Of a stretch of DNA of 39,294 nucleotides, positions 26,375-27,318 are shown one piece after another. Both the position numbers and the translations under genes were made by a program. The notes beneath the pieces are model-generated. The model made no database searches, was not told where the DNA came from, and saw only the letters and a program-made list of their open reading frames with translations. Origin of the DNA: a virus; the UHGV virus genome UHGV-0210057. The stretch is one strand, 5' to 3'. Every line of letters starts with the position of its first letter. Position 1 is the stretch's first letter.

Positions 26375-26860
26375 CTACCTGATATTACTGCTACTGTTGC
26401 ATGTTACCGTGTTTCCAAATCCTGAATTGCAGTTTGTATATGTGTCAACGCGTGTTGGGTAAGGTTGAGTTATAACAGGCTGGCGCGCTTTTTGCTCGAT
26501 CGCTTGCATTGTGTTTACAGCCTGATAATTCAATAAAGCCTGCTGGAATGCTTGGCTTTGTGCTATTTGTTGGGCTTGTTCTTGGCTTTGTAATTGAACA
26601 TAAAGATTCTGAAGCTCAAGTCTTGCCTGTGCGTCACTTATCTTGCCTTCATCGACACCTTGCCCGAGCATCTTTGCAGCAAGGACATACAGCTTAGGTG
26701 TTGGTGCTGATGCCATGCGTGAGTCGTTCTTCACACTGGCATCAAGGCAATTAGCCATATCGCTAAGCTTTTGATAGCGTTGTTCGCAACTTGCTTGATA
26801 GTCACTTACTTTTGCGCATCCAACCAGCAGAAGCGGGATAATTAACAGTGATTTTTTCAT
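26375..26860 (-). CDS. Lipoprotein of unknown function in the sieA position
   Basis: 161 aa from MKKSLLIIPLLLVGCAK (signal peptide with lipobox LVGC); Q-rich predicted coiled coil; convergent with gp16, co-oriented with mnt. Confidence 0.65.
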   Translation of the reverse strand: MKKSLLIIPLLLVGCAKVSDYQASCEQRYQKLSDMANCLDASVKNDSRMASAPTPKLYVLAAKMLGQGVDEGKISDAQARLELQNLYVQLQSQEQAQQIAQSQAFQQALLNYQAVNTMQAIEQKARQPVITQPYPTRVDTYTNCNSGFGNTVTCNSSSNIR

Positions 26861-26930
26861 ATGGTTAACTCTCCTTAGTTTTTCACAGGATATCATGAAG
26901 GCAATGCCATTTTAGCCGGAAACTAGATTT

Positions 26931-27230
26931 CTATGTTTCCTTTTTATTATTGCTATACATGGTCTTAAGCGTATCAAAGACAATTTTCTTAACCATCTCA
27001 GATTGTTGTTCTGCCATACGCTCTGCATCGTCAATGTAAACAGATGCAGAGCTTTGTTTAGCCAATGATTCTTCAATCGCTGCAATTATCTCTGAGTTCA
27101 GAGACCTGTTATTCATCTTCGCACGCTGTTTAATTTTCGCGTGGAGTTCATGCGGAAGTCTCAAGTGAAACTGCGCCTCGTCGTATTTGCTGTACATCCT
27201 TGATGCCTCACCAGTTGGGTGGAATGGCAT
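26931..27230 (-). CDS. mnt: Mnt-like ribbon-helix-helix repressor
   Basis: Aligns with P22 Mnt as recalled (..F.LR.P.E...K.K.RA..N.RS.NSE... and NDAERLADEQSELVKKMVFDTLK vs DDAERMAEQQSEMVKKIVFDTLK); start may be Met1 (27230) or Met12 (27197). Confidence 0.8.
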   Translation of the reverse strand: MPFHPTGEASRMYSKYDEAQFHLRLPHELHAKIKQRAKMNNRSLNSEIIAAIEESLAKQSSASVYIDDAERMAEQQSEMVKKIVFDTLKTMYSNNKKET

Positions 27231-27318
27231 CGTAACCTACTGGATAAATACTCAATAGTACCATTTCGGTATGCAATAACATCATGGTTGCATCATCTCA
27301 TTCGTCTGGAGCAATGAA

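Follow-up and report, generated by a model that had tools for sequence, protein, structure and literature searches.

The virus genome UHGV-0210057 was analyzed over its whole length of 39,294 nt (hereafter the window). Between its gp16-type ejection protein gene and its tailspike gene, only two genes were found: one encodes a lipoprotein of 161 amino acid residues (26375-26860, minus strand) and the other a homolog of the Mnt repressor of phage P22 (26931-27197, minus strand). The window holds the whole genome, in circular permutation, of a lambdoid coliphage of the P22-like (Lederbergvirus) type, with cII, O, P, Q, the lysis genes, the genes from terminase to gp16, the tailspike, an O-acetyltransferase, int, recombination genes and a cI-like repressor. 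The genes that define the interval are as follows.

24513-26360, plus strand: gp16-type ejection protein gene (phrog_770, DNA transfer protein, 1.8e-276)
26375-26860, minus strand: lipoprotein gene, 161 residues and stop (phrog_6067, function unknown, 1.6e-110, full length)
26931-27197, minus strand: Mnt-family repressor gene, 88 residues and stop (start set by alignment with P22, Gally, Brookers and VSe13)
27319-29655, plus strand: tailspike gene, divergent from mnt (P22 head-binding domain, PF09008 Head_binding, 2.7e-66)

The lipoprotein gene is convergent with the gp16 gene across a gap of 14 bp, and 70 bp separate it from mnt on the same strand. The gap between mnt and the tailspike gene measures 121 bp (ATG 27197 to ATG 27319), or 88 bp if the upstream ATG 27230 is used, and the 121 bp hold no open reading frame (ORF). 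A first-pass annotation of this DNA had described the same two genes, the absence of arc and ant, and a divergent mnt with 90-120 bp of intergenic DNA. The ORFs together with the Pfam and PHROG matches agree with the gene content, the distance agrees under either start codon, and the sensitive search for cryptic remnants of arc, ant or sieA was negative in the window: tblastn with P22 Arc, Ant and SieA against its whole length gave a best E-value of 0.008, for a spurious antisense match inside the tailspike gene. An Rfam scan of the window detected neither sar RNA nor any other family. The interval is best explained as a pared-down form of the “ant moron” (immI region), the hypervariable segment between gene 16 and the tailspike gene of P22-like phages.

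Exchange of the lipoprotein gene for sieA

The lipoprotein gene had been placed at first pass in the position that sieA takes in P22, and this placement was confirmed at the nucleotide level. Two loci of E. coli prophages (L086 and L090) carry the immI region of P22 itself, with mnt at 98% and arc at 96-98% identity, plus orf59a. In these loci, the DNA remains homologous to that of P22 (92.8%) up to a point 7 bp ahead of the start of sieA and 11 bp ahead of the ATG of the lipoprotein gene. Some E. coli prophages whose immI region is of the P22 type thus carry the coding sequence (CDS) of the lipoprotein as a precise replacement for the CDS of sieA, with the 5' leader and its ribosome-binding site retained. 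The leader is also present in the window:

26871-26898, minus strand: sieA-type 5' leader with the ribosome-binding site AAGGAG and the extended -10-like sequence TGATATCCT (26887-26895), aligned to P22 sieA, L086, L060 and VSe13

The sequence TCATGGTATCCTGCACAAAACTAAGGAG is common to the 5' regions of P22 sieA and of the lipoprotein gene; its version in the window is TCATGATATCCTGTGAAAAACTAAGGAG, and the general pattern is TCATG(G/A)TATCCTG..AAAACTAAGGAG. The extended -10-like element (TGnTATCCT) within the leader may act as a promoter. The annotated PsieA hexamers, which lie just upstream of the leader in P22, are missing from the window.

To describe the surroundings of the gene, 80 loci of IMG/VR with the lipoprotein gene at 97% identity or more were compared, and the moron interval was defined in 78 of them. 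The minimal layout of the window (mnt followed by the lipoprotein gene) was the commonest (36 of 78). An extra lipoprotein gene on the opposite strand, as in phage Gally (GALLYPH_14), was found in about 10 of the 78, orf59a with an hkcC-like gene in about 15, and ant, in some cases together with arc, in about 15. When the 80 loci were probed with P22 (type A) SieA only, no P22-type sieA was detected, and a crude count of transmembrane (TM) segments revealed no polytopic ORF (three or more hydrophobic/TM segments) in the 78 intervals.

The lipoprotein gene, at 97-100% identity, was joined to at least four types of gp16 (49-100% identity) and to many tailspikes, and it therefore behaves as a mobile moron. 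A link between the lipoprotein allele and the gp16 type was considered and ruled out, since the same allele (97% or more) joins gp16 genes that are only 49% identical. Likewise, the view of a dedicated Mnt-lipoprotein module proved overstated: the same lipoprotein gene (97% or more) also occurs with full mnt-arc-ant regions and with other morons. Taken together, it is firmly supported that the lipoprotein moron is interchangeable with sieA at a recombination hotspot.

The likeness of the lipoprotein gene to P22 sieA (phrog_7745; PMC10883804) lies in the genetic setting. Both occupy the same slot abutting gene 16, antisense to the late operon and downstream of mnt, both share the 5' leader and ribosome-binding site, and both encode envelope proteins of similar length (164 residues for SieA, 161 for the lipoprotein) with expression from the prophage; the two did not co-occur in the loci examined. 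In contrast, no relationship of sequence was found (hhalign probability 0.2%), and SieA is a polytopic inner-membrane protein, whereas the lipoprotein is predicted to be an outer-membrane protein with a soluble periplasmic body. P22 SieA itself matches phrog_7745 at 7.7e-109, and this family was not among the PHROG matches of the lipoprotein. The exclusion activity of SieA and its link to the ejection proteins gp16 and gp20 have been shown experimentally (Leavitt et al. 2024, PMC10883804); no other exclusion function has been mapped to this hotspot, and only about one third of the sequenced P22-like phages carry sieA (PMC10883804).

The layout of the window is not new. In a comparison of sixteen genomes, the region between gp16 and the tailspike showed ten layouts and a high genetic flux (PMC2629481), and ST64T, ST104 and Para1 were described in 2008 as carrying only mnt and a gene whose function is unknown, without arc and ant (Villafane et al. 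2008, PMC2629481). Phages Sf101 and IME10 also have mnt without arc and ant, and their mnt and intergenic DNA are 97% identical to those of the window, but mnt stands alone there, without the lipoprotein gene.

The lipoprotein and its family

The lipoprotein gene lies within an ORF of 26375-26896 (minus strand), and its start was set at ATG 26860 by the ribosome-binding site AAGGAG (26871-26876) and by comparison with all homologs. The encoded protein opens with MKKSLLIIPLLLVGC and was divided into four parts, all encoded on the minus strand.

26816-26860: signal peptide with the lipobox LVGC (Cys15), read from sequence, Cys15 being invariant in the alignment
26576-26815: conserved N-terminal helical domain (residues 16-95) with the invariant Cys25 and Cys38
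26480-26575: Gln-rich helical spacer (residues 96-127), which distant homologs of 125-135 residues lack or have in shortened form
26378-26479: Pro-rich linker and C-terminal Cys-bounded beta-hairpin C145...C154 (strands 139-146 and 152-159)

The lipobox consists of L12-V13-G14-C15 with Ala at +2, and the signal peptide MKKSLLIIPLLLVG, followed by C, fits the pattern [LVI][ASTVI][GAS]C; the 161-residue lipoprotein with an LVGC lipobox that had been read at first pass was therefore upheld. A lipobox was found in 84 of the 92 close and 126 of the 142 distant homologs, and the residue at +2 was never Asp across 210 homologs. According to the “+2 rule” in Enterobacterales, Asp at +2 causes inner-membrane retention, and Lol-dependent sorting to the outer membrane is predicted otherwise. 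Given the lipobox, the +2 residue and the four conserved cysteines of the mature chain, the lipoprotein is probably anchored in the outer membrane and exposed to the periplasm. The signal peptide is the sole hydrophobic stretch, and the mature chain is hydrophilic, helical and cysteine-rich. The four mature-chain cysteines of most members (Cys25, Cys38 and a C-terminal Cys-x8-Cys pair) would fit two periplasmic disulfides. The C-terminus occurs as two alleles in the alignment of close homologs, namely ...TNCNSGFGNTVTCNSSSNIR and ...TTNCxxYGNQxxCQSY.

An AlphaFold2 model was built with a 127-sequence alignment. It contained a confident helical domain (residues 18-95; predicted local distance difference test, pLDDT, 88-95), one long helix (residues 76-125) that runs through the Gln-rich stretch with the pLDDT dropping from about 86 to 51 toward its C-terminal end, a Pro-rich linker of low confidence, and the C-terminal beta-hairpin. 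The protein had been described as having a Q-rich coiled coil. The Gln-rich part of this description stands (14 of the 40 residues at 88-127 are Gln), and the coiled coil is just the predicted long helix of declining confidence.

Close homologs form 94 clusters with 48-99% identity, all from Enterobacterales and all labelled hypothetical. The identity range spans at least 12 enterobacterial genera, the cysteines are invariant, and an ortholog is transcribed in a lysogen, which shows a real gene and not a chance ORF. The ratio of nonsynonymous to synonymous substitution rates (dN/dS), a rough estimate from few pairs only since dS is saturated between genera, was about 0.13 overall, 0.16 for the N-terminal domain and 0.37-0.44 for the spacer and C-terminus, the spacer standing at about 0.44; these values point to purifying selection that is weakest in the distal parts. 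When the lipoprotein was compared with Pfam, NCBIfam and the sequences of the PDB, no match was obtained. The sole candidate, GspK, fell far under its cut-off (18.9 bits vs 130) and was rejected; it probably explains why one database entry is mis-named “GspK”.

Among sequenced phages, the gene was found in Gally (GALLYPH_13, 97.5% identical), vB_EcoP-720R6 and VSe13 (96-97.5% for the three), as well as in the Proteus phage Brookers and “MS2 LVA” (55%). The contexts of close homologs were read in E. coli, Salmonella, Proteus, Providencia, two Tatumella species and Pectobacterium. Wherever the context was readable, it was a P22-like prophage in which the gene was convergent with and abutting gene 16, with a same-strand Mnt gene upstream. 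Of 5,426 complete E. coli genomes, 77 carried the whole module, among them that of the O26:H11 enterohemorrhagic E. coli (EHEC) strain 11368.

According to an exhaustive profile search, the wider lipoprotein family comprises 246 clusters (50% level), which have four conserved cysteines in common. Most members are lipoproteins of 125-135 residues with the N-terminal domain and a C-terminal TxCxxxGxxxxC hairpin, without the Gln-rich spacer, and no Pfam domain was found in them. One distant homolog is located at the cargo end of an int-AlpA-primase element (P4-like or like a phage-inducible chromosomal island, PICI), beside a T5orf172/MUG113 protein; others lie on a phage-like contig, beside a TIR-domain protein and near DUF4365 (one each). 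The distant homologs beside the T5orf172/MUG113 and TIR-domain proteins lie in L095 and L096 (5001-5534) and L094 (5001-5573). The gene is thus already present in databases and phages as “hypothetical”, and the variability of its region was known; what is new is the precise swap of sieA for the lipoprotein gene and the delineation of the wider family.

Mnt, its putative promoters and transcription in a lysogen

The mnt ORF extends over 26931-27230, with ATG 27197 as the start by alignment. The encoded protein has both domains of Mnt, a ribbon-helix-helix domain (PF03869 Arc, E = 1e-14, 54.6 bits, cut-off 20.4) and a C-terminal coiled-coil tetramerisation domain (PF11423 Repressor_Mnt, E = 7.9e-14, 51.5 bits, cut-off 20.9), and is 49% identical to P22 Mnt over 76 residues (E = 3e-29). 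When the gap between mnt and the tailspike gene was aligned with P22, Sf101, VSe13, Gally and Brookers, the Pant/Pmnt/Omnt layout of P22 was found to be kept, with putative divergent promoters and a candidate operator at homologous positions:

27229-27255, minus strand: putative Pmnt-homologous leftward promoter by positional homology (-35 TTGAGT at 27250-27255, 15-nt spacer, -10 TACGAT at 27229-27234)
27220-27250, plus strand: putative rightward promoter, homologous to Pant but degenerate, directed toward the tailspike gene (ATGGCA-15-TAAATA or TGGAAT-17-GATAAA)
27258-27272, no strand assigned: candidate Mnt operator GTACCATTTCGGTAT with the dyad TACC-N5-GGTA, located where P22 has Omnt and adjoining the Pmnt -35

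The region differs from the immI region of P22 in lacking arc, ant and sar, in a rightward promoter that faces the tailspike gene directly, and in the two putative promoters, whose hexamers are poorer and whose spacers at the homologous positions both measure 15 nt. The counterpart of Pmnt in P22 is the TTGAGA-17-TATCCAT region annotated in NC_002371, in which the -10 is TATCAT. The putative rightward promoter matches the consensus at about 7 of 12 positions, against 11 of 12 for P22 Pant (TTGACA-17-TATATT).

The first-pass annotation had suggested looking for an Mnt operator palindrome in 27198-27318, and the dyad at 27258-27272 was found there; it is the single TACC-N5-GGTA site in the window. 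At the equivalent position, the operator of P22 is GGTCCACGGTGGACC. The recognition beta-strand of Mnt is likewise different (QFHLRL in the window vs HFNFRM in P22), and across nine phages the operator type covaries with these residues. An Mnt with HFNFRM or QFNLRL is paired with (A/G)(G/A)(A/T)CCAC-N-GTGG..., and an Mnt with QFHLRL (the window, Sf101 and VSe13) with GTACCATTT(C/A)GGTAT. To judge from this covariation, Mnt probably still binds the candidate dyad. The candidate operator is located 46 bp upstream of the tailspike ATG, and the ribosome-binding site of the tailspike gene starts 36 bp past the dyad. With arc and ant gone, the promoter guarded by Mnt would now point at the tailspike gene, and the earlier suggestion that Mnt may regulate itself or the tailspike fits both the conserved promoter and operator architecture and the unique operator-like dyad. 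In P22, transcription from the immI region reaches gene 9, and the “ant moron” may tune tailspike levels (PMC2629481).

Two side observations concern these transcripts. A hairpin, GGAAAC-N11-GTTTCC followed by TTTTTATTATT (26918-26951, plus strand), overlaps the 3' end of mnt and faces rightward; it was not flagged by the terminator scan because of its 11-nt loop. Transcripts of the late operon can arrive at the tailspike gene only by crossing this hairpin, antisense to the lipoprotein gene and mnt. Tailspike levels are known to be controlled through termination, and the hairpin may contribute to such control. The only antirepressor-like candidate of the window is a Rha-like regulator located after the lysis genes (10665-11435; phrog_129, 1.5e-61; phrog_518 Rha, 9.3e-10), and no site resembling the Mnt operator was found near it.

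Transcription of the lipoprotein gene could be followed in published RNA-seq data of E. coli LF82, which carries the Gally prophage (Misson et al. 2023, PMC9928086, tables S1/S4). In overnight LB culture, the normalised counts of GALLYPH_13 were 78 and 62, with a median of 15.6 for the prophage, a 4.5-fold excess, and the adjacent gp16 gene was silent, at background level (PMC9928086). Expressed as log2 of fragments per kilobase per million plus 5, log2(fpkm+5), the values for GALLYPH_13 were about 6.1 in LB, about 8.0-8.2 in the bacteria-only samples B1/B6 (interpreted here as cell-culture medium), 10.3 after 1 h in macrophages and 8.6 at 6 h (log2 fold change 2.55, q = 4.7e-27; PMC9928086). 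The rise in macrophages was about 16-fold. The data for the Gally locus (L002 133-3986) also imply a condition-responsive promoter in the gap between mnt and the tailspike gene and tailspike mRNA in lysogens, which are not discussed in PMC9928086.

In Gally, an opposite-strand gene parts the lipoprotein gene from mnt, which argues that the former has its own promoter. In the window, no terminator was found in the 70 bp between mnt and the lipoprotein gene, and the RNA of this spacer forms only a small hairpin without a U-tract (z-score -1.25, not significant), which is no terminator. Read-through from Pmnt, together with the leader element, is therefore the likely source of the lipoprotein transcript. 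The opposite-strand gene of Gally-type loci (10 of the 78), GALLYPH_14 (L002 2947-3366), encodes an unrelated second lipoprotein of 139 residues (lipobox LSGC; phrog_6823, function unknown) and is the most highly expressed gene of the region. Further small secreted or membrane proteins were observed at the hotspot in other loci, and it seems to collect envelope proteins.

Proposed role, alternatives and implications

We tentatively favor envelope-level superinfection exclusion as the role of the lipoprotein, without holding it to be established as the probable one. The lipoprotein gene is equivalent to sieA as a cassette and did not co-occur with it, the protein is predicted to lie in the envelope, and some distant relatives are found in mobile elements. 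Moreover, in the loci examined, the close family is restricted to P22-like prophages in hosts of unrelated lifestyles, and homologs in such unrelated niches argue for a phage-related rather than a niche-specific role.

The following sequence of events is proposed. Mnt would bind the dyad at 27258-27272, damp the weak Pant-homologous rightward promoter and adjust how much of its own leftward transcript is made; this transcript would run without a terminator into the lipoprotein gene. The lipoprotein would be exported, receive its lipid at Cys15 and be delivered to the inner leaflet of the outer membrane. From there, a disulfide-bonded helical domain, the Gln-rich helical spacer and the disulfide-closed C-terminal hairpin would face the periplasm. 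The protein would attach to a component of the outer membrane or periplasm, or to the incoming conduit of ejection proteins, and so stop DNA delivery by related phages, as an outer-membrane counterpart of the inner-membrane SieA.

A broader proposal, which we regard as rather doubtful in its entirety, is that the lipoproteins form a new family of envelope exclusion proteins that, by means of the periplasmic helical domain and the C-terminal disulfide hairpin, block the P22-type trans-periplasmic ejection conduit in its assembly or passage or lock a secondary receptor in the outer membrane. Relatives would serve in other mobile elements and be domesticated in chromosomes, and Mnt would have been re-purposed as a lysogen-specific, stress-responsive controller of the lipoprotein gene and of tailspike transcription from the prophage.

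The lipoprotein had also been likened to known exclusion lipoproteins, and the likeness was found to be one of general type only, without similarity of sequence or fold. Llp of T5 and Cor of T1, phi80 and N15 are phage lipoproteins with a cleavable signal peptide and a lipobox, encoded near adsorption or injection genes; they reside in the outer membrane, block FhuA and are proposed to act from the periplasmic face. However, the PHROG of Cor (phrog_1119) matched only the signal peptide (residues 1-31, E = 0.035), no match of structure was found in BFVD, and the lipoprotein of the window is two to three times larger, with a three-part architecture. P22-like phages adsorb to the O-antigen and not to FhuA.

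Several results weigh against exclusion and against the regulatory scheme proposed with it. Similarity was found neither to Cor, Llp, SieA and Bor nor to other exclusion or defence proteins that are known; no family of PADLOC-DB 2.0 matched at E-values up to 1; fold searches of the model in the PDB and BFVD returned only generic helical bundles; and no phenotype, exclusion included, is on record for any family member. The absence of sieA from the loci rests on a type A query and a crude TM count, and types B and C of SieA share about 25% identity with type A. The rightward promoter matches the consensus poorly, the spacer of the candidate Pmnt measures 15 nt, and both promoters, like the operator, were recognized only by alignment with P22 and relatives, the promoter scan and the inverted-repeat finder having called none of them. 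The dyad by itself is unremarkable: a comparable site occurred somewhere in the window in 33 of 100 shuffles. Gally was reported to be free of morons, which follows from the 4.5-fold excess of GALLYPH_13 lying just under the 5-fold “moron” threshold of that study (PMC9928086). Finally, at least one distant homolog (L011 6208-6633) has plainly chromosomal surroundings (uvrC, udg, earP and bio genes), so that the ancestral role may be a housekeeping function of the envelope.

The expression data fit a role in host adaptation equally well, and the alternative that best withstands the evidence is that the lipoprotein is a lysogenic-conversion factor for host fitness (envelope stress, serum or intracellular survival) induced by host-associated conditions, as is Bor of lambda. 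We consider this unlikely but deserving of serious weight. GALLYPH_13 was induced in medium and in macrophages together with the neighboring GALLYPH_14, and the wider family includes chromosomal lipoproteins outside mobile elements. Bor/Iss is likewise a small outer-membrane lipoprotein (as the present one is predicted to be) that is expressed from a prophage and up under host-associated conditions. However, the lipoprotein has no similarity to Bor/Iss or other known virulence lipoproteins, Bor is encoded in the lambdoid lysis region and has a demonstrated function in serum resistance, and the hosts with close homologs in the sieA slot include plant pathogens and gut bacteria as well as an insect symbiont and a pathogen of fish, a spread that does not resemble that of a niche-specific virulence gene. 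Deletion of the neighboring mnt of Gally (of mnt, not of the lipoprotein gene) left survival in macrophages unchanged (PMC9928086).

The same silent deletion, the high flux of the region (PMC2629481) and the weak-consensus promoters could be taken to mean that the pair is an evolutionary leftover of little function today, with Mnt left behind when arc and ant were lost and the lipoprotein carried along as a hitch-hiking passenger. This is improbable, as both genes are intact and conserved, the low dN/dS (about 0.13), invariant cysteines and cross-genus homologs speak for a maintained lipoprotein, the minimal layout is the commonest (36 of 78), and the operator covaries with the recognition residues of Mnt. 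A service in the lytic cycle, in which the lipoprotein would stop virions from ejecting on debris or vesicles or modulate lysis or periplasmic injection events, is in our judgment a poor candidate. A partial action of this kind is ascribed to T5 Llp and T1 Cor (PMC11990801), and the gene sits among genes for injection and adsorption proteins, but it is transcribed from the prophage, antisense to the late operon and while the late genes are silent, it is missing from many functional P22-like phages including P22, Sf6, HK620 and Sf101, and P22-like phages already destroy the receptor with their tailspike. That the ORF encodes a virion or structural protein is very improbable: despite its place inside the morphogenetic cluster and a weak match to a minor tail protein (phrog_2952, E = 0.0094, residues 43-120), the product has a lipoprotein signal peptide, is encoded opposite to the late operon, is expressed in a lysogen and is missing from most P22-like phages, and the structural homolog that would have spoken against an exclusion factor was found in neither the PDB nor BFVD.

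Elsewhere in the window, the following elements were recorded. The integrase gene is internal (31208-32401) and adjoins the O-acetyltransferase gene, and the window begins at cII and finishes at the cI-like repressor, which argues for an excised or circular phage arrangement and not an integrated prophage with host flanks. An insertion resembling an insertion sequence (6531-8753) separates the Q antiterminator gene (5943-6341) from the lysis genes (9532-10463); it contains a transposase ORF (7707-8753, minus strand, phrog_157, 2e-76) and a phrog_410 ORF (6531-7688, minus strand). It may impair expression of the late operon, in which case the phage may be defective. The nin region holds two likely morons, of which one encodes an SMR/QacE-like small multidrug transporter (2636-3022, plus strand, phrog_1395, 6.8e-58) and the other an esterase (3081-4124, minus strand, phrog_3341, 3.7e-129). 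The receptor-binding part of the tailspike (from 27679, residues past about 120) had no relative in the 80 IMG/VR loci, and the tailspike gene is followed by an O-antigen acyltransferase gene (29715-30893, minus strand, PF01757, 1.1e-28). The unrelated receptor part and the acyltransferase suggest an unusual O-serotype specificity with a matching seroconversion.

The lipoprotein is a well-framed candidate, not a discovery. If it proves to be a functional alternative to SieA, the hotspot would hold interchangeable exclusion cassettes that act at different layers of the envelope, the family of about 250 clusters of unannotated proteobacterial lipoproteins would gain its first functional lead, and the poorly understood periplasmic step of DNA delivery by podoviruses would become accessible through a new handle. 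LF82 is a strain associated with Crohn's disease, and the lipoprotein gene is common in E. coli and strongly induced inside macrophages. Whether its role lies in phage resistance or in host fitness, either outcome bears on phage therapy and on the biology of the pathogen.

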